Source: Planctomycetota bacterium (GTDB lineage Bacteria > Planctomycetota > Phycisphaerae > UBA1845 > Fen-1342). Taken from it: DNA of 51,246 bases. The stretch covers positions 1 through 51,246 of the forward strand of contig JACRLV010000056.1 in assembly GCA_016235145.1 (NCBI GenBank), given 5' to 3'. Made by a program: the position numbers and the translations under genes. Numbering within the stretch: position 1 is the stretch's first letter; each line of letters starts with the position of its first letter. This document shows positions 11,723-42,283 of the stretch, one piece after another. Under the pieces are notes generated by a model. The model made no database searches and was not told the DNA's origin. It was given only the letters and a program-made list of their open reading frames with translations.

Positions 11723-11983
11723 CGATTTCTTCCCCCGCTCCGCGGCTCTGAAGGCGTCGAAGCCCACCTCCCACGGCTCGCGCCGTGGGCCATCTTCTTA
11801 CGCCCTTCCAGGGCTAACTCCAAAACGGCCAATACTGTCAGCCCCTTACGGTCGCCGCGGGCAAACAAAGTATCGACGGCCTCGGTCTGAACCGGTACAT
11901 TCCTCCCAACGGGCGCGCCCGGGGCGTGTCCAGACGAAATCAAACGGAATCGATTTCGGCCGGGTTACACGGAGGATCGGACA

Positions 11984-28322: not shown

Positions 28323-29363
28323 GTGGCTGCCAACCAATCCCCATTCGACGCCCAAATTTCCGCCGACGTTGCACGGACGGTCGTCGGCCGCACAATTTTG
28401 CCGGCACGATTCGGGCCTGCGGCGGACGAATATCATCGCGTGCGGAAGTCCTGCGGCCTGTTCGATCGCAGCGATCGCGGCCTCCTGGTCGTCAGCGGGC
28501 CGGATCGCAAGGTCTGGCTGCACAATGTGGTGAGCAACGCGGTCCGCACGCTGGATGACAACGCCGGCGCATATGCGTTTGCCCTGGATTTGCGCGGCCG
28601 GGTGCTGTTTGATCTGAGCATTCTTGTGCTGGCGGACCGCCTCTGGCTCGACATCGACGAATCGCGGATCGAGGCGGCGATCGCGCATTTCAACCGGTAT
28701 CTGATCATCGAAAAGGCTGAGGTCGCGAACGCCACCGCGCAGTGGGCACGGCTGGGCGTCGCCGGTCCGACTGTGTCTGAGGTCGCGGCCAGGCTCGGCG
28801 TCGGCAATTTCGCGGCCTGGCCGGCGCTTCAGAGTGTGTGGCTGGAGCCGGACCGCGTGCGGCTCATTCGACATGACTTCGCGGGCCTGCCGGGGCTTGA
28901 GCTCGTCCTGCCGCGCGAGGCCGCCGGGGCTTGGTGGGCACGGTTGGCGGACGAATGCGGCATTCAACCGGCGGGGCAGGAAACGCTGGACGCCCTGCGA
29001 ATCGAGTCGGGCATTCCGTGGTACGGGCGAGACATCGACGAACGCACGATCGGCCCGGAGACGGGGCAAATCGAGCGGGCGATCTCATACAACAAGGGTT
29101 GCTATCTAGGGCAGGAGGTAATCGAACGGATGCGCTCCCACGCGTCGCTGGCCCGGCGGCTGGTGCGCGTTCGGATGGTTGACGGAAGCGGGCTGGCGCC
29201 TCCCGTGGCGATGCAGCAGCAGGATCGGGAAGTCGGACAAATCACGTCGCTTGTGCCCCACCCACTCGGACAATCGTGGATCGGCCTCGGCTATCTGCGG
29301 ACGGCGGTTATGAGCGCCGATGGTCTTGCCGCCGGCGGACGCGCGGTCGAAGTCGCGCCGTAG
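28323..29363 (+). CDS. YgfZ/GcvT-family folate-binding protein
   Basis: [18 protein letters not shown]...WLHN and [46 protein letters not shown] are typical of the aminomethyltransferase/YgfZ fold. Confidence 0.88.
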
Positions 29364-29405
29364 CGCGGCATCTCAAAGTACGGTCATGCAGGCTTCTTGT
29401 CTTTC

Positions 29406-29475
29406 CTCTGCGTTCTCTGCGTTCTCCGCGGTTCAAGAGCTTGATTTCACCGCAGAGGACGCAGAGATCGCAGAG
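29406..29475. repeat. long imperfect hairpin built from CTCTGCG repeats
   Basis: The left arm CTCTGCGTTCTCTGCGTTCTCCGCGGT (29406-29432) pairs with ACCGCAGAGGACGCAGAGATCGCAGAG (29449-29475), 24 of 27 positions, with a 16-nt loop. Weaker pairing extends to about 29392-29487. Intergenic. Confidence 0.7.
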
Positions 29476-29547
29476 AAGAAAGAACAGGCGCAGATTGTGG
29501 ACGCGCGGGGGGCAACAGCCATTTCGATTGGGCGACATACAATCGGC

Positions 29548-31686
<2,139 letters not shown>

Positions 31687-31871: not shown

Positions 31872-32345
31872 GTGATCAACGTGTCTGAGCTCCAAGTTCG
31901 TCTTTGCGCCATTCGCGCCGATGAGGCTGCGATTCGAGAGGCATTGGACGGGACGGCCGCCTCGCTTGACCAGTGGTTGGGCGAGATGAACCAGGTGCAT
32001 GATCTGCTCGCGCGGGCCGTCGCGGCTGTGGACAAGGGTCGCAAGCCGCTGATTTCGGGACCGGCGCCGGCGCCCGCGGCGACTGGGCATGAGACCGCGT
32101 TGTTCACGGGCAATGCCCGGATCGGCAAGCCGGTCGAGGAGCAGGCCGCTCCCTCCGCGACGTCGGCGGAAGAGGACGCGGCCCTGCTCGCGTCGCTCGA
32201 TCCGGAGACCGCGGAAGCCGTGCAATTGCGAAGGCGGCTGTTCGGCGCCCGCAAGAGCCTGCGCGAAATCGTGGATGAAGTTCGAGCCGACAAGAAACCC
32301 GCAGCCCCGAACCCGCCGCAGCAGAAGAAGGGCTGGTGGAGTTGA
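31872..32345 (+). CDS. hypothetical helical/disordered protein (first gene of GTPase operon)
   Basis: 157-aa ORF with GTG start and coding-like composition. Its stop lies 2 nt before the next start. No recognised family. Confidence 0.55.
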   Translation: MINVSELQVRLCAIRADEAAIREALDGTAASLDQWLGEMNQVHDLLARAVAAVDKGRKPLISGPAPAPAATGHETALFTGNARIGKPVEEQAAPSATSAEEDAALLASLDPETAEAVQLRRRLFGARKSLREIVDEVRADKKPAAPNPPQQKKGWWS

Positions 32346-32347
32346 CC

Positions 32348-33376
32348 ATGAGCGAACATGCGGCGGAGCCTCGAGGGGGAAACACGATGGACGAGCCGGC
32401 GATCGATCTGGAACGGCTTCGGCGACTCAGCGCCGACGTGATCGGGAACATGCAGCAGCTCCGCACACTGCTGGATGCCCGGGCCGCGGCGCTCGAGGAA
32501 TGCCGCGAAGCGCTCGAAGGCTATGCCACCCAGCTCAAGACCGAGAGCGAGCAACTCAGCGCGCATGAGCGCGAGTTGTGCGAACGTTATGAGTCGCGCG
32601 AAGGCGAGCTGGCGGCCCGCGAAAAATCGTGCGCGGACCAGGAGCAGGCCTACGGTTCCAAGCAGGAGCAGTTGGCGGCCCGCGAAACGGGCGTGCAGAC
32701 CGCGGAGCGCTCGCTGTCCGAACGCGAGGGCGCCATCTCCACGCGCGAACAATCCACGGCGCAGCGCGAGCACAAGGTCGCGGCCGTCGAGAAACAGATC
32801 GAATCGCAGAGCGCGGAATTGGCCGCGAAGACCCAGGCCATTTCGGAAGAAACGGCCAGACTGAGCAAGCTCGACGCCGAAGTGCGTTCCGCGTCGGCGA
32901 CGATTTCCGCGCGCAGTGATGAGCTCAATCAGAAGCTCGCCAAGTTCGCCGCGGATCAGGAGGCGGCCGCCAAGCAGAAGAGCGAACTGGCCGGCCAGGC
33001 ACAGCAGATTTCAGAACAGAAGGCCGCGTTGACGCAACTGGCGGCCCAAACCGCGCAGGACCGGCAGGAAGTCGCCAAGCAGATGGCCGAAATCCGTTTT
33101 CTGCGAGAAGCCTGCGAAGCGCGAAAACGCGAGGTGGACGCGGCCGCGGAAAGCGTCGCCAGCCTCCAGAAGCAGCTCGAATCCGAACTCAAGCAGCTCG
33201 CGGAGAGCGCCAACGCTCCGGCCATGCGTTTCGTCGAAACGCAGCAACCGGCGGGGTCGGGCGCGGCGCCGGGCGCGGGCGGCCTGCCGCAGCCTCCGGA
33301 CGCCAAGCCGCGCGGATCGGCCGAGCGATTCCAGAAGTTGTGTCGCGACGCAAAACGCAAGGCGATCGGATCCTAG
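32348..33376 (+). CDS. long coiled-coil protein
   Basis: About 250 aa of uninterrupted heptad-like E/Q/A/K/R-rich sequence (ELAAREKS...QEQLAARETGVQTAERSLSEREGAISTREQS...). GGAG lies 7 nt upstream of the ATG at 32348. Confidence 0.75.
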   Translation: MSEHAAEPRGGNTMDEPAIDLERLRRLSADVIGNMQQLRTLLDARAAALEECREALEGYATQLKTESEQLSAHERELCERYESREGELAAREKSCADQEQAYGSKQEQLAARETGVQTAERSLSEREGAISTREQSTAQREHKVAAVEKQIESQSAELAAKTQAISEETARLSKLDAEVRSASATISARSDELNQKLAKFAADQEAAAKQKSELAGQAQQISEQKAALTQLAAQTAQDRQEVAKQMAEIRFLREACEARKREVDAAAESVASLQKQLESELKQLAESANAPAMRFVETQQPAGSGAAPGAGGLPQPPDAKPRGSAERFQKLCRDAKRKAIGS

Positions 33377-33394
33377 TCGGAGCGGAGCCCAGCG

Positions 33395-34387
33395 ATGGCG
33401 ATGAGACTGTTTTCCAAGCTGAGCGGAAAGGACACAAGGCCCGCCGCGCCGGACCCACGGGTCCTGCCGAAGCGGGCCGAGTTCCAGCCTTCCGCTCCGA
33501 TGAAGCCGGCGGGCGATGAGCTGGCCCAGGCGATTCAGGCGCGCCGGTTCGGGTACATCCTCGCCAACGCCGAGCGATTCGCAGCCAGCGCGCGCTATGC
33601 CGCCGCCCGAGCCGAGGCCACGAAATCCGTTGACGCGGAATTTGCTCTCGTTCCGGACGGCTTCGCAACGGTCAGCATGACGGTGAACGGCGACGGCAAC
33701 GGCGTCGAGCAGGACGTCGAGACCGCGGCGTTCCTGCTGGCCGGGCATCCCGTCACCAACGCGGAATACCAGCTTTTTGTCGACAGCGGCGGATACGAGA
33801 ACTTCGAGTTCTGGCCGGAAGAGGTCTGCGCCCACATTGTCGATTTCAAGGACCGTTCGGGCCGGCTTGGGCCGCGATTCTGGCAGGATGGCCGGCACGA
33901 CAAGCGCGTGGCGGATCATCCGGTGGTCGGCGTCTCGCACGTCGAGGCGCTGGTCTATGCGCGCTGGGCGGGCTATCGCCTTCCGACCGAAGCGGAATGG
34001 CAGATGGCCGCCAGTTGGCGCCTGCGGAGCGAGGCGAACGTCAGCCGGCGTTATCCCTGGGGCGACGCGCTCGACCTGGAAAACTGCAACATCTGGCACA
34101 GCGGGCACGGCGGAACACTGCCGGTCTCGGCCTGTCCGGGGGGCAACGCGCCGAATGGCGTGGCGCAGCTCATCGGCAATGTCTGGGAATGGACCAGTTC
34201 GGATTTCACCTGCAACGACCTCGATGGTCGGCCGATCGTCGGCGACACGCTCATGAAGACGATCCGCGGCGGCGCCTTTGATACGTATTTTCCCTGGCAG
34301 GCGACGGCGAGCTTCCGTTCCGCATCGCCTTGCCTCACCCGTGCGCACAACATCGGCTTCCGGTGCGCACTCGACGCTTTGGAGTAA
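33395..34387 (+). CDS. SUMF1/FGE-fold (formylglycine-generating-enzyme-like) domain protein, probably non-catalytic
   Basis: HPVTNAEYQLFV, HPVVGVSHVEALVYARWAGYRLPTEAEW, NVWEWT and RGGAF...NIGFRCA are hallmark SUMF1-family motifs. The C-x4-C type active-site cysteine pair of bona fide FGEs is not present before GFRC. Confidence 0.9.
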   Translation: MAMRLFSKLSGKDTRPAAPDPRVLPKRAEFQPSAPMKPAGDELAQAIQARRFGYILANAERFAASARYAAARAEATKSVDAEFALVPDGFATVSMTVNGDGNGVEQDVETAAFLLAGHPVTNAEYQLFVDSGGYENFEFWPEEVCAHIVDFKDRSGRLGPRFWQDGRHDKRVADHPVVGVSHVEALVYARWAGYRLPTEAEWQMAASWRLRSEANVSRRYPWGDALDLENCNIWHSGHGGTLPVSACPGGNAPNGVAQLIGNVWEWTSSDFTCNDLDGRPIVGDTLMKTIRGGAFDTYFPWQATASFRSASPCLTRAHNIGFRCALDALE

Positions 34388-34391
34388 CACG

Positions 34392-35300
34392 ATGTGGCGT
34401 AGCGGGGGACAGACAACCTACGAAAGCGACGCGGAAAGCGGCACGACCTGCCTGATCTGCGACACGCACAACGGGACGGGCGCCGTCCTCTGCTCGCAGT
34501 GCGCCGCCCCGTTGTCGCTCACGCTTTCGACCATCGGGGCCGAGCGGCCGCCGCGGCTGGTGACCGTGCTGGGCGACAGCAACGTCGGCAAGACGGTCTA
34601 TCTCGGCTTTTTGCTCGACATGCTCACGCAGCGGGCCCGCGGCTTCGAGGCGATCCCAAAAGGCACCAGCTCGGTCAATCTTCAGCAGATCGTCATCAGC
34701 CACATGGCCTGGCGCATGTTCCCGCCCAAGACGCCGATGGAAAGCGACCAGTGGAACTGGGCCTATTACGAAGTCTGTCAGAAGCTCGCCGGCCGCAAGG
34801 AGAAATGGGTCGATCTGATTACGCCGGACCTGGCGGGCGAAGCGATCGCCGCCGAGGTGGCGTCGCCGTCCACCTTCGGCGTGATTCAGAAACTGCTGAA
34901 CAAGTCGGCGGGTCTGCTGCTGCTGGTGGACGCGGCCCTCGCGGCCAACGGCTCGTCGCAGCCGGATTTCTTCGCGCTGAAGCTGATGAGCTACGTGGAC
35001 TCGATGGCCTCGCAGAAGCGCGGCAAGAAGATCGACAAGCCCGTTGCGCTGGTGCTGACGAAGGCGGATTACGTGCCGGAGTGCTTCGACAATCCGCGCC
35101 GCTTCGCCCAGGCCAACCTCAACCGGCTCTGGAATATCTGCGAAAGCCGCCTGGCGAATTTCGAATTCTTCGCGTCGAGCGTGGTCGGCTCCATCGGCTA
35201 CGCCGTCAATGAGTCCGATGGAATGGTCACGCCCGTACCGTTGCACACCGCGCTGCACGGGGTGTTGGAGCCGTTCGAATGGATCGTGGACAAACTGTGA
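34392..35300 (+). CDS. zinc-ribbon-fused P-loop GTPase (unassigned family)
   Basis: CLIC-x10-CSQC at aa 20-37. G1 GDSNVGKT (nt 34572-34595), G3 DLAG, G4 TKAD. The ATG lies 4 nt after the upstream TAA, with GGAG overlapping that stop. Confidence 0.85.
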   Translation: MWRSGGQTTYESDAESGTTCLICDTHNGTGAVLCSQCAAPLSLTLSTIGAERPPRLVTVLGDSNVGKTVYLGFLLDMLTQRARGFEAIPKGTSSVNLQQIVISHMAWRMFPPKTPMESDQWNWAYYEVCQKLAGRKEKWVDLITPDLAGEAIAAEVASPSTFGVIQKLLNKSAGLLLLVDAALAANGSSQPDFFALKLMSYVDSMASQKRGKKIDKPVALVLTKADYVPECFDNPRRFAQANLNRLWNICESRLANFEFFASSVVGSIGYAVNESDGMVTPVPLHTALHGVLEPFEWIVDKL

Positions 35301-36418
35301 CCGACGGGCAGGCGAATCCGCCGGCCGAAACGCCGCCCAGCGCACCTCGCACCGTGCAGGTCGAGCAGGCGGTGTTCACCTCCGTCCCTTCGCCGATGGG
35401 CCGGGGCTATCGGCTGGTCGCGGCCAGCGCCGGCGTCACCGCGGACGAAAAGCGGGAAATCACCCAGCGGGCGCCTTCGCACGGCAACCTGCTCGACGCG
35501 TCCGAGCACGGCAACGGCCTCTACAGTTTCGAGCTGCGCGGCGGACGGCGCTGCGTGCTGGCGACCTGGCACGCCGAGACGGAGCACACCGGCCGCGGCG
35601 GGCGGCGCGTGCACACGCAGGCGGCCATTCTGGACCGGGAGTCGTTCGCACAGTTCAGTTCGAATCCGATCCTGGTCGAGGACGCCGTGCGGCGGACCGT
35701 CGACCGTATGCTGATCCCCAAGGCGGATTCGCGCCTACCGCTGCTGGAGCTTCCGCTTCCCGACGCCTGCGCGCCGGACGCCGCTTCCGCCGCTCCGTAC
35801 GCGGCCGACGCCGCGCTGATCGACGCCGTGATCGCGATGACCGCGCTGCTCGTGACGGAGCGGCGGCTGATCGTGACGGACGCTCCTGACGGGAGAGCAG
35901 CGTTTCAGCGCGTAATCGAGCTGCTTCCGATCGAGCGGCGGGCCGCGCTCGACGTGGCGCTGGGAATGCGTTTCGCGCCGTCGCGGGCGGCGAGCGTGGT
36001 TTTCACGCAATGCCGCCGGGAAGAGATGGAGCGGATCGTCCGCGACCACGCCTACGAGGCCTTCACCTGGAGCGAGCCGCCGGAATTGAACATCTCCGAC
36101 GAGCTAAGCTCGTGGTTCGGGCTCGTGCATCGCACGTGGCGCGTCGAAGGGCTCGCGGCCCTGCACGCGCTGCTGGCCAAGGTCGGGCCGGAGCTCTCGA
36201 TCGAGGCCCTGACGCAGATCGGCCGCCTGATGATCGACATCGGCCGCATCGAGACCGTCCCGTCCGACCGCCTCGACGACGTGCTCGAACGCCACCTGCC
36301 CTTCGTCCGCCGCAACGAGCTGCAAACGTCGCTGCACCTGAAGCTGATGCAAGCCGCGGAAACCCGCCGCCGGCACTGCACCAGCCTGATTCCGGACATC
36401 GCGATCACGCTGCCGTAG
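35279..36418 (+). CDS. hypothetical protein with GTPase-associated-protein (GAP1-N)-like N-terminus
   Basis: 379-aa ORF overlapping the GTPase stop. The alternative start GTG at 35297 forms a GTGA overlap. The N-terminus VEQAVFTSVPSPMGRGYRLVAASAGV resembles the QxxYTS...GFQ...AxSxG pattern. The rest is helical. Confidence 0.72.
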   Translation: MDRGQTVTDGQANPPAETPPSAPRTVQVEQAVFTSVPSPMGRGYRLVAASAGVTADEKREITQRAPSHGNLLDASEHGNGLYSFELRGGRRCVLATWHAETEHTGRGGRRVHTQAAILDRESFAQFSSNPILVEDAVRRTVDRMLIPKADSRLPLLELPLPDACAPDAASAAPYAADAALIDAVIAMTALLVTERRLIVTDAPDGRAAFQRVIELLPIERRAALDVALGMRFAPSRAASVVFTQCRREEMERIVRDHAYEAFTWSEPPELNISDELSSWFGLVHRTWRVEGLAALHALLAKVGPELSIEALTQIGRLMIDIGRIETVPSDRLDDVLERHLPFVRRNELQTSLHLKLMQAAETRRRHCTSLIPDIAITLP

Positions 36419-36441
36419 GCGTCGCCAACAGAATGCGCCAC

Positions 36442-36495
36442 GGCCGCCGAATATGCCCCGGCCGCCGAATATGCCCCGGCCGCCGTATTTGCCGC
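36442..36495. repeat. 18-bp tandem repeat x3 (third copy degenerate)
   Basis: GGCCGCCGAATATGCCCC occurs twice exactly (36442-36459 and 36460-36477), followed by the degenerate copy GGCCGCCGTATTTGCCGC. It begins 24 nt after the operon's last stop codon. Confidence 0.85.
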
Positions 36496-36577
36496 AGCCG
36501 CCCCCGGCTGTCGCTTCCCACATGCCGCAGCCGCATCGGAACCCCATTCTGTCATTGACGCGTCCGCCTCGGAATGT

Positions 36578-36660
36578 GGGTAGCATCGGCTTCCAGCCGG
36601 TTATTCCGAGTGGCGCCGGCGTCTCGCCGCGTTTCGGGTAGCACCGGCTTCCAGCCGGTT
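36578..36660. repeat. two direct copies of a GTAG-hairpin REP-like unit
   Basis: GGGTAGCATCGGCTTCCAGCCGGTT (36578-36602) and GGGTAGCACCGGCTTCCAGCCGGTT (36636-36660). Each contains the hairpin CCGGCT-TCC-AGCCGG. They lie between convergent genes. Confidence 0.8.
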
Positions 36661-36662
36661 CT

Positions 36663-37895
36663 TCACGGCAGCGTCTCCCCGAAATTCCCGAGCAAAATCG
36701 CGAGGTCCTGCAAATCCACGTCGGCGTCGCAATCGAGGTCGCCGTCCTGATACGAGGCCCCGCCCGGCAGGCCGAAATGCGAAAGCAGCGCCGCCAGGTC
36801 GAAGAGGTCCACCTGTTCGTTTTCGTCCAGGTCGCCAGGGATGTAAGGCGTCAGGACCGCGCCTTCGCGGTTGGGCGGATCGATGATCGCGGCGATCTGG
36901 CCGCGGTTGTTCAGCCGGTTGAAGCGGAGCCGATTCGTCTGCCCCTGCACGCAGGGGTCGATCAAATCGTCAATGACGCGCAGCCCCCGCCGCGGATCCC
37001 AGACCGCGTTGCGGATCTGGTGCGAATCAGGATGTCCCAGGATCACCGTCATGGTCATGTTGTCGTTGATGTCCAGGCCGGCGGCGCCCGTGAATCCCGG
37101 CAGGGGTGAAACCATCTGTACGAACCCTTGATCCCGCTGCCAGATGTACGCCTTGCCCTGGGTGCAGGTTCCGGTCACGTAGCCCAGGTTGTTGATTCCA
37201 AGTCCCGAAGTCGCCCATCCGCCGCCAGGCAGGTCGCCGAAAGGCTGCATACCGCGTTCTGCATCCCAGATGAAGGCCTCGCCCTGAATCGCACGCCCCG
37301 AGCCGCTGATTCCGACGACTTCGGTGCGATTGTTCATCGCGTTCGCCCAACTGATCGTCTGCCCGCCGGGCAGGTCGCCCAGGCCGATCATGCCGTTGAC
37401 GGGATCCCACAGAAATGCCTCATGGTCGCCGTTGGCGCCGACGGAATCACCGACGATCTGGTCGAGATCGTTCATGTCCCAGGGCTGGCTGTAGTAACGC
37501 GCGCCGCCCGGAATCGTCCCGATGCGGATCATGCCGTTCTCGGGCGTCCAGAAAAAACCCTCCGTCCCAATGTCAGCGTCGGCATCAGATACGCCGGTCG
37601 CATGGCCAAGGTCGTTGATGGCATACGCGGCGGACACGACGTTGCTGCCGGGAAAATCGCCCAGCGAGACCAGCCCGGTCTGCTCGGACCAGATGATCGC
37701 CAATGAAACGTCTCCCGTCGCCAAACTACGTCCGCAGACCATTCCAGATGAGTTGATGTCCGTGGTTACGCTGTAGAAATGGCCCCCGGGAAGGTCGCCG
37801 ATTCGCTGGACACGATAGCGAATCTCCGCCCGTGCGTCCGACTGAATGGCGACGATGACGCCCGCGAGCAACCCGATACTACGGCAACTAGCCAT
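36663..37895 (-). CDS. secreted HAF-family extracellular repeat protein with C-terminal dockerin-like module
   Basis: Repeated units ...INN/DLG.V.G.S......[EH][AG]F.W....GM...G.LPGG.... occur at least six times, the HAF repeat pattern. The C-terminus is GDLDENEQVDLFDLAALLSHFG...GDLDCDADVDLQDLAILLGNFG. Start taken at MASCRSIGLLAG. Confidence 0.88.
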   Translation of the reverse strand: MASCRSIGLLAGVIVAIQSDARAEIRYRVQRIGDLPGGHFYSVTTDINSSGMVCGRSLATGDVSLAIIWSEQTGLVSLGDFPGSNVVSAAYAINDLGHATGVSDADADIGTEGFFWTPENGMIRIGTIPGGARYYSQPWDMNDLDQIVGDSVGANGDHEAFLWDPVNGMIGLGDLPGGQTISWANAMNNRTEVVGISGSGRAIQGEAFIWDAERGMQPFGDLPGGGWATSGLGINNLGYVTGTCTQGKAYIWQRDQGFVQMVSPLPGFTGAAGLDINDNMTMTVILGHPDSHQIRNAVWDPRRGLRVIDDLIDPCVQGQTNRLRFNRLNNRGQIAAIIDPPNREGAVLTPYIPGDLDENEQVDLFDLAALLSHFGLPGGASYQDGDLDCDADVDLQDLAILLGNFGETLP

Positions 37896-38022
37896 GATTG
37901 ACCCTTTCCACGTACCTGCGCTGACGGTGAGCCATGTCAAAACAAACTAGATCCCATTCCACAACCGCGGACGCACATACCATCGGCCGTCGCCGCGGTT
38001 GTGGGATGGGCTCGCGCCCTGC

Positions 38023-39492
38023 TTATGGCGGCAGCGTCTGCAAGGAGCTGTTCAGGAGAACGCTGATGCTGCCGGACGACGTGTTCGAGACCACCACGTC
38101 GTTCTGCCCGTCATCGTCAAAATCGGCGATTCGAACGAAAGTTGGGCCTCCCTTCCAGGGGGGATCCTCACATACCGGCTCGGTCGCGAAGTAGTGAATC
38201 GTCGGCCAGAATGTGCCGTCGGACTTGCTCAGCAGCACGGCGATTCCGCCCTGCTGGTCGCTCCCGCATCCGCCGGAAGGGATTCCCTTCTGGCACGTCA
38301 CCACCACGTCGTTGAGGGTGTCCGGATTGAGCCTTCCAATGTCCATTTGGAACGGTTCTTCGTACTCAGTGAGTGCATCGCCAGGCGTCCGAAGGTTGAA
38401 GGCCCCCGTACCATTTCCCTGGTCGCGGAACACAACGTTATCACTATCGAGCATCACGGACGTTTGGCATGCCAGTACGGCGTCGTTGTAAGGTCTTGTT
38501 CCTAATTTCCCGAAGACCACGCTGTTCGAGTTTCGACCAGGCTGAAAGGACGGCGTCCAGATCGGCAGGCCGTTGGAATCCGGACCATCGTTAAGAAATA
38601 CCAAAAGATGGTCTTCGTTCTGGAATTCTGAAGTCAACTCAAGCGAAACCAAAAGGTCCAGCCGTCCGCCGACCTGCGGCAGCCGCACCGGCGCCGCGAC
38701 CGCGTCCGTCGCTTGGCCCTCGATCGGCAACCCGCCGATATACTCAAAATCGTAGTGCTGGACGCTGTATCCGCCGCTGGTTGCACCCATGACCACGTCA
38801 ACCTGCGGGTGGGAACCCGTGATTTCGTGCGCGGGATCGGTCCAGTGTCCGCCAACGATGAAATCCGGCGTTCCGTTTGCGTCTACGTCCGCGGTGGTGA
38901 GGCCGTTGACGTTCAATACGGACAGCGTAATCCGCGTTTGCGGATAGGAGTCGTAGTGGCCGGTTCCGTCGTTCCAGAGAATGAGGAGATATTCTTCTTG
39001 TCCCACTTCCTCTCCGAGAGTTCGGATCGTCACCACGATGTCCAGAAAGGGCTCCATCGGCTGGCCCGGCTCGCGCTGGAGGTTTACCAGTTCGACGTCG
39101 TACGGTTTTGCCAGCGGGTCGAGAATCGGATAAACTTGGTCGAGCACAAGACCCGGATCGGTCGCCGACCAGTCACCGCTGTTGCGAAATACGCTGATTG
39201 TCTTGGTCTCGGAGTTGGCCACCACCACGTCGATGTTGCCGTCGGGATCCACGCCGTCACCGATGATGTCGCCCACCGCCAGCCCTAGCGGACCGCTGTA
39301 CACGCAATGCGCCCCTCCCGGTTGCCCATCCTGTTGAGCACAGTATACTCGTGGCGGCTTAAAATGAAGCGGTTTTTCGGCAGCGAATGCCGGCGAGACG
39401 ACCAGAACACCTCCCAGAGCGACCGTCAGGCCGAGCGATCGTGGAAACAGGGCGATTGAGTTCCGTCGAAACATTTTGCGCCTCCTTGGCAA
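38023..39492 (-). CDS. secreted FG-GAP/VCBS repeat (integrin-alpha-like propeller) protein
   Basis: Signal peptide present. Repeated motifs GD..GDG..D....ANS....ISVF.N.G, DVDANGTPDFIVGG and ADFDDDGQNDVVVSNTSSGSISVLLN. Confidence 0.88.
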   Translation of the reverse strand: MPRRRKMFRRNSIALFPRSLGLTVALGGVLVVSPAFAAEKPLHFKPPRVYCAQQDGQPGGAHCVYSGPLGLAVGDIIGDGVDPDGNIDVVVANSETKTISVFRNSGDWSATDPGLVLDQVYPILDPLAKPYDVELVNLQREPGQPMEPFLDIVVTIRTLGEEVGQEEYLLILWNDGTGHYDSYPQTRITLSVLNVNGLTTADVDANGTPDFIVGGHWTDPAHEITGSHPQVDVVMGATSGGYSVQHYDFEYIGGLPIEGQATDAVAAPVRLPQVGGRLDLLVSLELTSEFQNEDHLLVFLNDGPDSNGLPIWTPSFQPGRNSNSVVFGKLGTRPYNDAVLACQTSVMLDSDNVVFRDQGNGTGAFNLRTPGDALTEYEEPFQMDIGRLNPDTLNDVVVTCQKGIPSGGCGSDQQGGIAVLLSKSDGTFWPTIHYFATEPVCEDPPWKGGPTFVRIADFDDDGQNDVVVSNTSSGSISVLLNSSLQTLPP

Positions 39493-39583: not shown

Positions 39584-39629
<46 letters not shown>

Positions 39630-39898
39630 GCGATCATGGAATCACTATGGATGGCCCCAGGCGGGAAGTCAAGGGGAATTACAGGACAACTGCCGCTCGG
39701 CTATGCAGTGGCTCATCACGGTCCGCGCCTCGACAAGAAGTGCCTGGTTTCGAAAACTGGCACGGCGCTCGTCCGAAACCTCAGCGCCGGCAAACTGCGC
39801 CTCCACCGGCAGCACCACGCGAGCGGCGCATTTCACCATACCAAACAAACCCCGAATTCTTGCTTCAAACCCCGCACGCCGCGCGGTATCGTCTTTGC

Positions 39899-42283
39899 AT
39901 GGCTTCCGGCCTTCGCATTCTGCACCTGGCCGATTCGCACATCGGCGCGCAACTGCCGGCGCGGCCGCGCGTGCGCGGGGCCGTCTCGCGCGGCGATGAC
40001 ATCGTCGCCAGCTATCGCCGCGTGCTCGGCCGGGCGCGGGAACACGAGGTCGATCTCGTGCTTCACGCCGGCGACGTCTTCGACATGCCCGATCCGTCGC
40101 CGCCGGCCGTCTCCGCCGCGGCCGCGCCGCTGCTGGAATTGGCGGCGGCGGGGTTGCCCGTGGTCATCGTGCCGGGAAATCACGAACGCTGCGTCATTCC
40201 CGGATCGCTGCTCTTTGCACACCCGAATATCCACATCCTCGACCGGCCGCGCACGCTGGTGCTCACGCTGCGCGGGACGCGCGTCGCGATCGCGGGCGTG
40301 CCGTTCATCCGCCGGCGGCCGGCGGAGCGATTCGCGGCGGAGCTTGAGCAGACCGGCTGGCCCGCGGCGGCCGCCGACGTGAACATCCTGCTCACGCACC
40401 AGGCGTTCGAGGCCGCAGTCTGCCCACCGGGCGCGTATCGCTTTCGCAGCGGCGAAGACGTGGTCGAGCGCCGCGACGTGCCCGCTGCGTTTCACTACGT
40501 CGCCGCCGGGCACGTGCATCGGCACCAGGTCCTGCGGCGAAACGGCGCGGCCGAGCGAAAACGGGGGCGGCGCGGCGCTTCTGTCGCACCGCCGAGCAGC
40601 CCGCTGCTGGCGCTCGACGCCGCCGACGGCCCGCCGATCGTTTATTGCGGCTCGGTCGATCGCATCAGCTTTGCGGAGCAGGACGAGGCCAAGGGCTGCG
40701 TGTTGATCGAAGAGGCCGGCGGCCGGCTGACGCACCGGTTTCTGGAGCATGACGTGCGGCCGATGCGGCGGCTGCCGATGGATGTTTCGGGGCTGAGCTG
40801 CGAGCAAATCCGCCGGAAAGCGGCTGAATGGGCGCGGGAGCTGCCTCGGGGCGCGCTGGCCCAAGTGCGGTTGAGCGGGCGGACGACGCCGCGCGCGATC
40901 CGCGGGCTGGCGCTGGCCGCTTTTGTGCGTGAAATGCGGCCGGATCTGCTTTTTGATGCGACGGCGCAGGCGATCGAGTTTGCATCGGAGCGGGACATCG
41001 CGGCGGGCGAGCCCGCGAACGGACACGAGGACAGGCCGCGCGCTACGACTTCGGTCGGGCCGCGTCCGATGACGCCGGCGAGCGCGTTCGCCGAGATCGA
41101 CGTAGCGGCGGGCGAAATCGTGTCGTGTGCGAAAGACGCCGTCGCCGAGTTGCCGACGACTTTCGCGACTTACGCCCTGTACGACGCGAAGGATCGGCTG
41201 CTCTACATCGGCAAGGCGACGAACGTGCGGGCTCGCGTGCGGCAGCATCTGGCGGCGCGGCCATCGGGGGCGTATTTCGAGGGCTGGACGCGCGAGATCG
41301 CGCGGGTCGAGGCGCGGCTGGCGCACAGCGATCTGGAATGCCTGTTGGTCGAGGCGGATCGAATCCGCGCGTTACGGCCGCCGTTCAATCGTCAGATGCG
41401 GCAGTGGGAGCGCTACTGCTATCTGTGCGCGGGGCAGCGGCAACATGGCGAGTTGACGATCTGCCGCGAGCCGGCGACGGACGAGGCGGCGGACGGGCTG
41501 CGATTCTTCGGTCCCTATCGCAGCCGGTTCGAAGCGGCTGCAATCGCCGAGGCGACTGCCGCACTCTTCGGTCTGGCCTATTGCACGCCGCTGCCGACAT
41601 ATCTGATTCGGCCGCGCCGCAACCGCCGCGGGGCGCCGATCGTCGCGCTGCCGCAGGCCGCGAATCTGTGCGATCGCTACTACGCGAAGCAGTGCTGCGG
41701 CCCATGTGCCCATCGCATCGGCGAGGCCGACTATTCCGCCGCCCTCGACCGCCGCGCCGCGCTGCTGGAAGGGCGAGACGATTCCGCTTTCGCCGCCGCG
41801 GAGGCCGAATTGGCGGACCGTTTGGCCAGCAGCAACGAGGAGCTCGACGAGGTCGTCGCGGAACGGGTCCGTTTCTACGAGACGCTGCGGCGAGCGTACG
41901 AGCACGGCCGCTTGCTGGCGGCGGCGTTGGGCTTGCTGGGCTCGACGCTTGAAATGCCGGGCCCTTATGGTGAGGTCACGCTGGCACATCTGCACGACGC
42001 CGGCGTGCGCATCGAACGTCGCCGGGCCGATTCGGCGGCGGCGCCTCGGCGAATCAGCAGTAGCGTCGGACCTCCGAGTCCGACGGGGTCTTCGATCATA
42101 GACTCGTCGTCGGACTCGGAGGTCCGACGCTACGAAATCGACCGCACACGGGCTCGGCGCAGCGGACCCCCCAACCCCAATCGCGACGGGTTGCCCGGCA
42201 CGCGCCCAGCACGCCGATCGATCCCGAAGAGCATGCTCGACTGCCTTTGCGCGGCGACGCGTATCGATCGACGTGACTGCTAA
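39899..42283 (+). CDS. SbcD/Mre11-like metallophosphoesterase fused to Cho/UvrC-N-terminal-half (GIY-YIG + Cys-rich + UVR-like) nuclease
   Basis: N-terminal ILHLADSHIG...LHAGDVFD...VVIVPGNHE...LLTHQ...AAGHVHRHQ are calcineurin-like phosphoesterase motifs of DNA-repair exonucleases. The C-terminal half has YALYDAKDRLLYIGKATNVRARVRQH...LECLLVEADRIRALRPPFNRQ (GIY-YIG), FGPYRSR, CDRYYAKQCCGPCAHRIGEADY, and a helical UVR-like segment. I chose the start at MASGLRILHL. The last 75 or so codons run through a REP-like palindrome. Confidence 0.85.
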   Translation: MASGLRILHLADSHIGAQLPARPRVRGAVSRGDDIVASYRRVLGRAREHEVDLVLHAGDVFDMPDPSPPAVSAAAAPLLELAAAGLPVVIVPGNHERCVIPGSLLFAHPNIHILDRPRTLVLTLRGTRVAIAGVPFIRRRPAERFAAELEQTGWPAAAADVNILLTHQAFEAAVCPPGAYRFRSGEDVVERRDVPAAFHYVAAGHVHRHQVLRRNGAAERKRGRRGASVAPPSSPLLALDAADGPPIVYCGSVDRISFAEQDEAKGCVLIEEAGGRLTHRFLEHDVRPMRRLPMDVSGLSCEQIRRKAAEWARELPRGALAQVRLSGRTTPRAIRGLALAAFVREMRPDLLFDATAQAIEFASERDIAAGEPANGHEDRPRATTSVGPRPMTPASAFAEIDVAAGEIVSCAKDAVAELPTTFATYALYDAKDRLLYIGKATNVRARVRQHLAARPSGAYFEGWTREIARVEARLAHSDLECLLVEADRIRALRPPFNRQMRQWERYCYLCAGQRQHGELTICREPATDEAADGLRFFGPYRSRFEAAAIAEATAALFGLAYCTPLPTYLIRPRRNRRGAPIVALPQAANLCDRYYAKQCCGPCAHRIGEADYSAALDRRAALLEGRDDSAFAAAEAELADRLASSNEELDEVVAERVRFYETLRRAYEHGRLLAAALGLLGSTLEMPGPYGEVTLAHLHDAGVRIERRRADSAAAPRRISSSVGPPSPTGSSIIDSSSDSEVRRYEIDRTRARRSGPPNPNRDGLPGTRPARRSIPKSMLDCLCAATRIDRRDC
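42060..42133. repeat. second copy of the REPIN-like nested palindrome
   Basis: GTAGCGTCGGACCTCCGAGTCCGACG (42060-42085) and its exact reverse complement (42108-42133), with a 22-nt spacer. The arms are identical to those at 1051-1123. Confidence 0.9.

Follow-up and report, generated by a model that had tools for sequence, protein, structure and literature searches.

Organization of the five-gene operon

We analyzed a 51,246-nucleotide (nt) stretch of DNA from a Planctomycetota bacterium of the Phycisphaerae (contig JACRLV010000056.1; the window hereafter means this whole stretch), with a focus on an operon of five coupled genes, A to E, which occupies positions 31872–36418 on the forward strand and includes a zinc-ribbon GTPase (D) and its GAP1 partner (E). 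The five genes were taken from the list of open reading frames (ORFs), and their shared strand and coupling-type junctions, pointed out in an original prediction made from the letters alone, can be seen directly in the sequence.

31872..32345, + strand: gene A, ORF with GTG start, 157 aa
32348..33376, + strand: gene B, ORF with ATG start, 342 aa, coiled coil
33395..34387, + strand: gene C, ORF, 330 aa, protein of the formylglycine-generating enzyme (FGE)/SUMF1 fold (FGS)
34392..35300, + strand: gene D, ORF, 302 aa, zinc-ribbon DO-GTPase
35279..36418, + strand: gene E, ORF, 379 aa, GAP1 protein (GAP1-N2 type)
35279..35300, + strand: overlap of D and E, 22 nt, read from the sequence

At the A/B junction, the stop codon TGA (32343–32345) is followed two bases on by ATG 32348, and an in-frame GTG at 32336 is a possible alternative upstream start of B. 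An 18-nt gap precedes ATG 33395 at the B/C junction, and at the C/D junction a GGAG (34381–34384) abuts TAA 34385–34387, with ATG 34392 four bases later. The coordinates first given for these junctions were correct, except that the TAA had been placed inside the GGAG, which it adjoins instead. At the D/E junction, ATG 35279 and GTG 35297 share a frame and D stops at TGA 35298–35300; both codons had been offered as the start of E, and ATG 35279 is now preferred, because all 24 E homologues start with M, 23 of them with MD or MT (the distant homologue P0024 starts with MA). A scan of the operon for promoter and terminator consensus sequences revealed no excess over shuffled sequences, and a search of the window found each of the five families once only. 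None of the proteins A–E contained a transmembrane segment (maximum 19-residue hydropathy at most 1.84, with the peak at a buried helix of the E model).

Conservation of the cassette across related loci

Six metagenome loci with E homologues (33–56% identity) each contained the same five-gene array, encoding A of 146–181 aa, B of 332–342 aa, an FGE protein of 320–339 aa, a DO-GTPase of 293–303 aa and a GAP1-N2 protein of 358–385 aa. BLASTP comparison of the window with these loci revealed the highest identity for D (63–86%), followed by C (55–75%), then by E (33–56%) and B (31–54%) at about the same level, and finally by A (28–49%). The flanks were different in each metagenome locus and housekeeping-like. 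A genome survey with the E alignment, restricted to one genome per GTDB species, yielded 89 relatives, from which 80 loci were kept and examined with hidden Markov models (HMMs) built from seven cassettes; together with the metagenome loci these make 86 related loci, in which the B-C-D-E order was judged where the locus has room for it. The four genes B-C-D-E had the same order and strand in every one of the 80 genome loci with room, and D and E were adjacent in all 86 loci. The 22-nt D/E overlap recurred in 5 of the 6 metagenome loci and in 36 of 78 genome loci, which implies a probable translational coupling of the two genes.

Each assembly had a single locus, and nearly all loci carried the label Planctomycetota, Phycisphaerae, Phycisphaerales or Sedimentisphaerales. 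Clustering of the flanks revealed no flanking gene family in more than 11 of the 80 loci and no further conserved component, so that the conserved unit is the cassette itself. The five genes, for which random adjacency had been named at the outset as the outcome that would speak against an operon-like module, were co-conserved, all five in the six metagenome loci and B-C-D-E in the 80 genome loci with room. As judged from these sequences, the cassette family is large and well conserved in environmental Phycisphaerae.

Three of the related loci stood out. Positions 2109–6559 of L009 (JGI 3300042089) hold a distant variant of four genes, whose products are a coiled coil of 222 aa, a longer FGE protein of 418 aa, a DO-GTPase that shares 35% identity with D, and a GAP1 of 445 aa in which GAP1-M is detectable; this variant may be intermediate between the window cassette and other GAP1-N2 systems. 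The contigs of L017 and L035 are labelled 'Candidatus Binatota' and 'Alphaproteobacteria', respectively, and their cassettes group with the Phycisphaerae loci, so that mistakes in binning or taxonomy, and not transfer, probably explain the two labels.

Gene D encodes a DO-GTPase with a single zinc ribbon

Two Pfam models, each with a gathering score of 27, matched D: PF19975 (DO-GTPase1) at 39.3 bits and, over nearly the full length, PF19993 (DO-GTPase2) at 34.3 bits. By this measure, D is a DO-GTPase of the TRAFAC class. The motifs listed below were assessed in 32 homologues.

34449..34502, + strand: zinc ribbon CxxC-x10-CxxC of D, residues 20–37; C20, C23, C34 and C37 invariant
34572..34595, + strand: Walker A/G1 motif GDSNVGKT of D, residues 61–68; G61, S63, N64, G66, K67 and T68 invariant
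34713..34733, + strand: RMFPPKT of D, residues 108–114; R108, F110, P111, P112, K113 and T114 invariant
34827..34841, + strand: Walker B/G3 motif DLAGE of D, residues 146–150; D146 and G149 invariant, E150 at least 90% conserved
35058..35069, + strand: G4 motif TKAD of D, residues 223–226; K224 and D226 invariant

The fusion of a zinc ribbon to G1, G3 and G4 motifs had already been recognized, and the invariance of the key residues confirmed it. D contained one zinc ribbon only, and it alone among the cassette proteins carries a P-loop; no second GTPase of the D family was present in the window or in the related loci. The RMFPPKT motif is, from its position, a candidate for the switch I/G2 threonine motif. 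Glu150 occupies the position of the catalytic Gln61 of Ras and would be compatible with partner-assisted hydrolysis.

The search with D returned 801 homologues, the top 120 of which were all at least 60% identical. Searches of PDB sequences with D and with the D profile found no significant relative. The AlphaFold2 (AF2) model of D (pLDDT 78.8) matched in Foldseek only generic small or TRAFAC GTPases (Der, RABL3, Rab33, SR-beta, Sar1, EF-Tu and YsxC), with no specific affinity, and resembled GTPases of the Rab, Arf/Sar and SR-beta type. Because no NCBIfam family matched D (none at E ≤ 1), we consider D not to be Era, Der, Obg, YchF or a translation factor; the initial view that D is no housekeeping GTPase is borne out by this result and by the DO-GTPase models above their gathering score.

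Gene E encodes a GAP1 protein with a predicted longin-DENN-like fold

E matched the Pfam model PF20013 (GAP1-N2) at 37.5 bits (gathering score 24), so that its early description as GAP1-like holds; the conserved VEQAVFTS... motif, placed at the N-terminus in that description, starts at residue 28 instead. PF20013 matched all 24 E homologues, and GAP1-M matched 2 of the 24 (best E=9.7e-6); in the window E itself, GAP1-N2 was the only GAP1 domain detected by sequence. No NCBIfam family was found for E, and a PDB search with the E profile yielded no significant relative. A full HMMER search with the same profile over 1.84 billion representative proteins gave 1,106 matches, 627 of them at E ≤ 1e-30.

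The AF2 model of E, built from the 24 homologues, had a mean pLDDT of 87.3 and a pTM of 0.84 and was composed of three domains.

35351..35698, + strand: N-terminal domain of E, residues 25–140, longin-like in the model (DSSP and Foldseek), corresponding to GAP1-N2
35582..35617, + strand: invariant loop of E, EHTGRGGRRVHT, between strands 4 and 5 of the N-terminal domain; E102, R106, G107, R110 and T113 invariant, pLDDT falling to 73
35726..36073, + strand: middle alpha/beta domain of E, residues 150–265, DENN-core-like in the model (full-length Foldseek matches, and GAP1-M in distant homologues), corresponding to GAP1-M
36098..36409, + strand: C-terminal all-helical domain of E, residues 274–377, d-DENN-like from the secondary structure of the model, corresponding to GAP1-C

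DSSP analysis of the predicted N-terminal domain (E25–38, E41–50, H55–64, E79–85, E91–101, E109–118, H120–124, H130–140) revealed the order beta-beta-alpha-beta-beta-beta-alpha-alpha, which is the longin topology. The whole chain of the model was compared by Foldseek with 350,542 PDB chains, and the matches included C9orf72 (7mge_C; E=2.2e-4, prob 0.96), folliculin (FLCN, 6nzd_H; E=4.2e-4), the bacterial protein TagF in third place (9t0n; prob 0.99, TMq 0.36) and DENND10 (8p0v_M; E=3.1e-3, prob 0.87), with other FLCN chains, FNIP2 and GATOR1 as further matches. Longin-DENN proteins accounted for six of the top eight (C9orf72, three FLCN chains, DENND10 and FNIP2), and apart from TagF all the proteins named act on small GTPases as regulators of the longin or longin-DENN type. 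The top matches spanned E=2e-4 to 1e-2 with prob up to 0.99, and their whole-chain TM-scores were only 0.18–0.40.

These matches suggest that the fold of E is probably longin-DENN-like. A DENN module consists of a longin domain followed by an alpha/beta DENN domain and a helical d-DENN domain (Zhang et al. 2012, PMC3521125), and in the model this series would map one-to-one onto GAP1-N, GAP1-M and GAP1-C. DENN, longin and Roadblock are not mentioned in the paper that defined the GAP1 family (Kaur et al. 2020, PMC7159879). If the longin-DENN fold holds, E would be a platform that acts on D as a GTPase-activating protein (GAP) or guanine nucleotide exchange factor (GEF), and the flexible EHTGRGGRR loop, with its invariant R106 and R110, is a candidate for a GTPase-contacting or arginine-finger loop; longin-type GAPs use a catalytic arginine.

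Gene C encodes an FGE-fold protein without the paired cysteines

Residues 85–325 of C matched PF03781 (FGE-sulfatase) at E=7.8e-41 and shared the core motifs WAG.RLPTEAEW, NVWEW, RGG and GFRC with the FGE family; Pfam found no other domain in residues 1–84, and C has a conserved N-terminal motif, MAxRLFS[KR]. In PDB sequence searches, C (query 98–275) matched the FGE-like C-domain of EgtB/OvsA, and its last 104 residues aligned best with SUMF2, an inactive FGE paralogue.

34265..34318, + strand: site of C aligned with the Cys336/Cys341 loop of FGE, RGGAFDTYFPWQATASFR; both cysteines absent (phmmer against the human FGE variants 2aft and 2afy)

In this alignment, GGSYM-C336-HRSY-C341-YRYRC of human FGE faces RGGAFDTY--FPWQATASFR of C, and the cysteine positions are taken by D/T/Y and P/W. 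The matches to EgtB/OvsA were confined to the FGE-like domain, with no DinB-type iron domain in C, and the NCBIfam EgtB model reached 108 bits (E=4.5e-31) against a cut-off of 360. C is predicted to be a cytoplasmic, non-catalytic FGE fold, and the initial reading of C as an FGE/SUMF1 fold without the paired cysteines agrees, as far as sequence can tell, with both PF03781 and the phmmer alignment. No hypervariable region was found in C, the C-terminus of which is among its most conserved parts, and neither a reverse transcriptase nor a signature of a diversity-generating retroelement (DGR) was found near the gene.

Genes A and B encode coiled coils with conserved tails

In A, a helix at the N-terminus and a tail at the C-terminus, both conserved, are joined by a low-complexity Pro/Ala linker; the protein belongs to no Pfam family. 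B, described as a coiled-coil protein from the start, has 342 residues, 254 of which follow a heptad-like pattern, and contains long runs free of Pro and Gly; its database matches were exclusively of the coiled-coil type, to the arms of SMC, JetC, Rad50 and LmuB. Both proteins end in a conserved motif (consensus RF.KL.RDAKRKAIG in B), which is carried in each case on a coiled coil that otherwise evolves fast.

32172..32342, + strand: tail motif of A, EDAALLASLDPETAEAVQLRRRLFGARKSLREIVDEV ... KKGWWS, from an alignment of 37 sequences
33323..33373, + strand: C-terminal tail of B, ERFQKLCRDAKRKAIGS, near-invariant and basic, from a conservation profile over 76 loci
L065 49–2949, L066 119–2878, L087 498–2969 and L090 372–2906, − strand: divergent equivalents of gene A, with the shared C-terminal tail

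The first HMM detected A homologues upstream of B in the 6 metagenome loci and in 32 of the 80 genome loci. The loci without this short A, which mostly bear Phycisphaerales, Phycisphaeraceae or Phycisphaera labels, contained a longer E (about 420–500 aa) and a large divergent ORF directly upstream, and the complete examples of this ORF (L065, L066, L087 and L090) encode coiled-coil proteins of 820–970 aa. Pfam assigned no family to these giant proteins of the second clade. The tail motif of A ends them in the form LDPET...[IL]R..RRL....KS..ELL ... K.GW[WF], always at the extreme C-terminus; this link was obtained by hmmsearch with --max (E=5e-9 to 1e-4) and was missed under the default HMMER filters. 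The additional length of E in the divergent-A clade, about 100 aa, is at its C-terminus. By this shared tail, the A family is present throughout in two forms: one clade has the short gene, which runs in the direction of the cassette, and the other has a divergent gene for an 820–970-aa protein. A SAP/HeH-like DNA-binding function of the A tail was considered and rejected, as a Pfam scan of the 37 tails (E ≤ 10) gave scattered noise only, without SAP, HeH or Rho_N.

In a neighbour-joining tree of D, 36 of the 40 long-E loci fell in one clade of 38, and the median D identity between the two major clades was 59%. By this pattern, the cassette evolves as one unit, with an architecture that follows the D phylogeny and, roughly, the taxonomic labels.

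Relation to known systems

The Pfam models that matched D and E represent families named by Kaur, Burroughs, Iyer and Aravind (2020; eLife 9:e52696, PMC7159879), who defined 'GTPase-centric systems' by computational prediction. In their description, DO-GTPases form a novel family within TRAFAC, marked by a glutamate in Walker B and often by N-terminal zinc ribbons, and GAP1, a protein of three globular domains (N, M and C) that occurs as types N1 and N2, is encoded just downstream of the GTPase; DO-GTPase/GAP1 occurs in hundreds of bacterial genomes (PMC7159879). One or more zinc ribbons are present on 60% of the DO-GTPase family, usually two in the N2 type, and 38% of the systems have paired paralogous GTPase genes, from which the name DO-GTPase derives (PMC7159879). 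The GAP1-N2 subtype is accompanied by a protein with rapidly evolving fibronectin type III (FNIII) repeats and by membrane-proximal components, with transmembrane segments in the GTPase, GAP1 or accessory proteins, and planctomycete GAP1-N2 versions with FGS-domain components were noted as well (PMC7159879). The combination seen here had at first been thought to lack a named system; with D and E matching DO-GTPase1/2 and GAP1-N2, it belongs to those of Kaur et al. (2020), and the GAP1 signature and FGS domains that the original prediction ascribed to GTPase conflict systems agree with that paper.

The cassette is a compact, soluble, vertically inherited and Phycisphaerae-wide variant of the GAP1-N2-type DO-GTPase systems. 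As in those systems, its GTPase carries a zinc ribbon at the N-terminus and a glutamate in Walker B, the gene for GAP1 follows directly after that for the GTPase, GAP1-N2 is found with FGS components in planctomycetes, and the function is predicted only. In contrast to the described systems, it has one GTPase gene in place of a paralogous pair (the pair is not obligatory), one zinc ribbon in place of the usual two, and a pair of coiled-coil proteins that end in conserved tails; its composition is the same in more than 80 species, and it has neither an FNIII-repeat protein nor membrane-spanning or extracellular parts. Pfam detected no fn3 domain in A–E or in the neighbouring genes of the window, and the genes called in seven related loci likewise included no reported fn3 domain. 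New here are the invariant composition, with B-C-D-E in one order in all of the 86 related loci, almost all from Phycisphaerae, that have room for them, the two forms of A and the predicted longin-DENN-like E. In the papers searched, DO-GTPase, GAP1-N2 and 'GTPase-associated protein 1' were named by Kaur et al. (2020) alone, and the phrase 'double-GTPase' occurred besides in a study of alignment methods. The terms Phycisphaer, GAP1-N2 and DO-GTPase did not occur in the accessible part of the supplement text of Kaur et al. (2020), and a literature search on TagF with DENN, or on a Phycisphaerae GTPase with coiled coils, found nothing relevant.

The longin-DENN regulators (FLCN-FNIP, C9orf72-SMCR8, the DENND family and GATOR1 Nprl2/3) have the three-part architecture predicted for E and gave its best Foldseek matches; they are likewise paired with a small TRAFAC GTPase, with control of the nucleotide state as the expected activity. 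However, E has no detectable sequence similarity to them and whole-chain TM-scores of 0.18–0.29, and the likeness could be due to homology or to convergence. Moreover, E is one gene product, whereas these regulators form an obligate heterodimer of two longin-DENN proteins, and for E a catalytic arginine is at most a candidate and a 'GP' motif is not established. MglA-MglB is also a bacterial operon of a small GTPase and a regulator of the longin/Roadblock class (MglB is a Roadblock-fold GAP), with a cellular, non-immune role in cell polarity; D is not of the MglA family, as it differs by its DO-GTPase Pfam matches, zinc ribbon and Walker B Glu, and E is three times larger than MglB, with two extra domains. 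TagF, a post-translational regulator of the type VI secretion system (T6SS), has the same overall shape as E, with the highest Foldseek probability and a near full-length alignment, but no GTPase is known as its partner and its gene is part of T6SS clusters, and T6SS genes are absent around the cassette.

C shares the fold family PF03781 with FGE/SUMF1, SUMF2 (pFGE) and the C-domain of EgtB/OvsA. It differs from FGE/SUMF1 by the absence of Cys336 and Cys341, as in the inactive SUMF2, from EgtB/OvsA by the absence of the DinB iron domain, and from the FGE family in general by being cytoplasmic, as predicted, with a conserved N-terminal extension. The DGR-diversified FGS/C-type-lectin proteins (Mtd and TvpA), on which the FGS 'effector' label of Kaur et al. 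is based, similarly use the FGS fold as a binding module; unlike these, C has no variable region and no nearby reverse transcriptase.

Proposed mechanism and cellular role

We propose, with confidence about evenly divided, that the cassette is a GTP-gated assembly module. The switch would be D, as an active GTPase with a zinc ribbon, and E, made in a fixed ratio with D through the 22-nt overlap, would serve as a longin-DENN-like platform to which D binds and which controls the nucleotide state of D in the manner of a GAP or GEF, with the invariant EHTGRGGRR loop as the candidate contact or arginine finger on D. The nucleotide state of D-E would gate the assembly of a complex from the coiled-coil proteins A and B, each of which may dock via its short conserved C-terminal tail, and C, as a putatively dead FGE/C-type-lectin fold in this complex, would bind a ligand or peptide.

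As to its role, we give about one chance in two to the view that the cassette serves the cell constitutively and in a lineage-specific way, as a scaffold or in polarity or surveillance, and is not a mobile, diversifying anti-phage system. We lean toward this role because the gene content is invariant, C is conserved, there is one locus per assembly and the architecture tracks the D phylogeny. The median D identity of 59% between the clades, the upstream HPPD-like gene that L001 and L010 have in common, and the lack of a transmembrane segment or a second copy point the same way. A screen for defence systems, suggested together with the 'defence-type' label of the original prediction, was run with PADLOC (PADLOC-DB v2): A, C, D and E gave no match, B gave coiled-coil noise against the arms of JetC and LmuB, and the ten neighbouring genes gave nothing usable, with one weak match to PDC-S10 at E=2.4e-4. 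A scan of 2.9 million viral contigs with the D alignment found no relatives, and the flanks of the window cassette and of seven related loci contained no mobile-element genes. With these results, the invariant content and the conserved FGS protein, the label found no direct support.

It is somewhat unlikely, and still the strongest competing view, that the cassette is a conflict or immune system in the sense of Kaur et al. (2020), with the FGS protein and coiled coils binding or sequestering an invader molecule, D-E setting the threshold of activation, and a 'neutralising' superstructure instead of an enzymatic toxin as the output. Membership of the DO-GTPase/GAP1 family argues for this view, as does the contextual case made by its authors, who describe a constant core whose effectors differ even among closely related organisms, other subtypes that carry SLATT, caspase or trypsin effectors, and FGS domains as direct binders (PMC7159879); the absence of an obvious metabolic partner in the cassette and the fast evolution of E, A and B would fit it as well. 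However, the gene content is invariant over 86 loci in a family said to be typified by variable effectors, and C is 50–75% conserved without a variable region or DGR signature. The single locus per assembly lies among housekeeping flanks without mobile genes, C, D, E and the neighbours have no PADLOC match, viral homologues were not found, and the cassette contains no FNIII sensor and no membrane component.

The operon could alternatively serve enzyme maturation, with D as a Cys-rich metallochaperone that loads C, an active FGE/EgtB-like oxidase, and with E as an accessory. FGE uses copper, and metallochaperones with Cys motifs are known among GTPases; this general background, together with the sulfoxide/selenoxide synthases that are the best sequence matches of C, gives the idea some ground. 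We nevertheless regard it as very improbable, as C has neither of the Cu-binding cysteines and no DinB-type iron domain like that of EgtB, D belongs to the TRAFAC DO-GTPases and not to the G3E chaperones (CobW/HypB/UreG), and two coiled-coil proteins and a DENN-like partner would be left unexplained. Practically no probability attaches to a chance adjacency of the genes, or to D being a housekeeping GTPase of the ribosome or translation, in favour of which there is nothing beyond Der, EF-Tu and YsxC among the generic G-domain matches in Foldseek. Gene order and strand are shared by 86 loci that differ in their flanks, the overlapping or near-abutting junctions are conserved, no NCBIfam housekeeping family matches D, and its DO-GTPase Pfam matches are above threshold; all of this speaks against such a reading, and chance adjacency is refuted by the conservation data.

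A bolder form of the cellular reading, which we hold to be distinctly unlikely, takes GAP1 as a genuine bacterial counterpart of longin-DENN-dDENN and the cassette as a core, non-immune cell-biology circuit of the Phycisphaerae. Its parts would be a Rab/Arf-like switch, a DENN-like regulator, two golgin-like coiled coils that dock by their C-terminal motifs and a lectin-fold adaptor, and the circuit would organize the envelope, polarity or division. The Phycisphaerae lineage is not known to have FtsZ. Were this bolder form true, cytoskeleton regulation in place of conflict would be the role of the entire DO-GTPase/GAP1 family, its tubulin-linked versions in actinobacteria and firmicutes included.

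Several points weigh against the GTP-gated module with a cellular role. The longin-DENN assignment of E comes from one predicted model with low whole-chain TM-scores, and E gave no longin or DENN signal at the sequence level in PDB or Pfam. The binding partners of the A tail, the B tail and C are guesses. The survey counted carriers of the cassette only, so that the cassette may or may not be 'core-like' among Phycisphaerae genomes. The DO-GTPase/GAP1 family was defined as a conflict system by Kaur et al. on contextual grounds, and our literature search found no experimental work on any DO-GTPase/GAP1 system. Finally, between L001 and L010 the identity of E, A and B was 35–45% versus 80% for the neighbouring metabolic enzyme, a difference that would fit an arms race too.

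The cassette is the simplest form seen here: it consists of five soluble proteins in an unchanging composition, with a single GTPase and nothing in the membrane, and its hundreds of natural sequence variants offer a practical entry to the biochemistry and structure of DO-GTPase/GAP1. Its conservation pattern raises doubt that the 'conflict system' label holds for all branches of the family. A longin-DENN-like GAP1 fold, if true, would mean a concrete mechanism for these systems, in which a GAP or GEF controls the switch, and would provide a widespread bacterial example for the debate on the origin of eukaryotic small-GTPase regulators.

Surroundings of the operon in the window

The convergent intergenic region after E (36419–36662) is rich in repeats and has an RNA fold z-score of −2.4. 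An 18-nt tandem unit is present there in about 3.7 copies (36431–36502), and two copies of a 29-nt unit (36578–36606 and 36636–36664) contain the hairpin CCGGCT-TCC-AGCCGG; the region possibly terminates transcription in both directions or represents a REP-like element. Beyond it, two genes on the reverse strand encode a 425-aa protein with no Pfam match and, by eye, Asp-rich dockerin-like repeats at its C-terminus (36663–37940), and a 489-aa FG-GAP repeat protein (38023–39492), both of which are likely secreted or surface products. A perfect (GA)19 microsatellite (39587–39624) about 20 nt upstream of an ORF for an 878-aa calcineurin-like metallophosphoesterase (39647–42283) is a possible slipped-strand switch.

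On the other side, directly upstream of the cassette, a GCV_T/YgfZ-like folate-binding gene (28323–29363) overlaps a DUF255 thioredoxin-domain gene (29320–31686) by 44 nt, and the two are possibly a coupled pair, which is not conserved beside the cassette elsewhere. Farther away, positions 11770–11815 on the forward strand matched the Rfam small RNA Acido-Lenti-1 over its full length, at 46.9 bits against a gathering score of 37.

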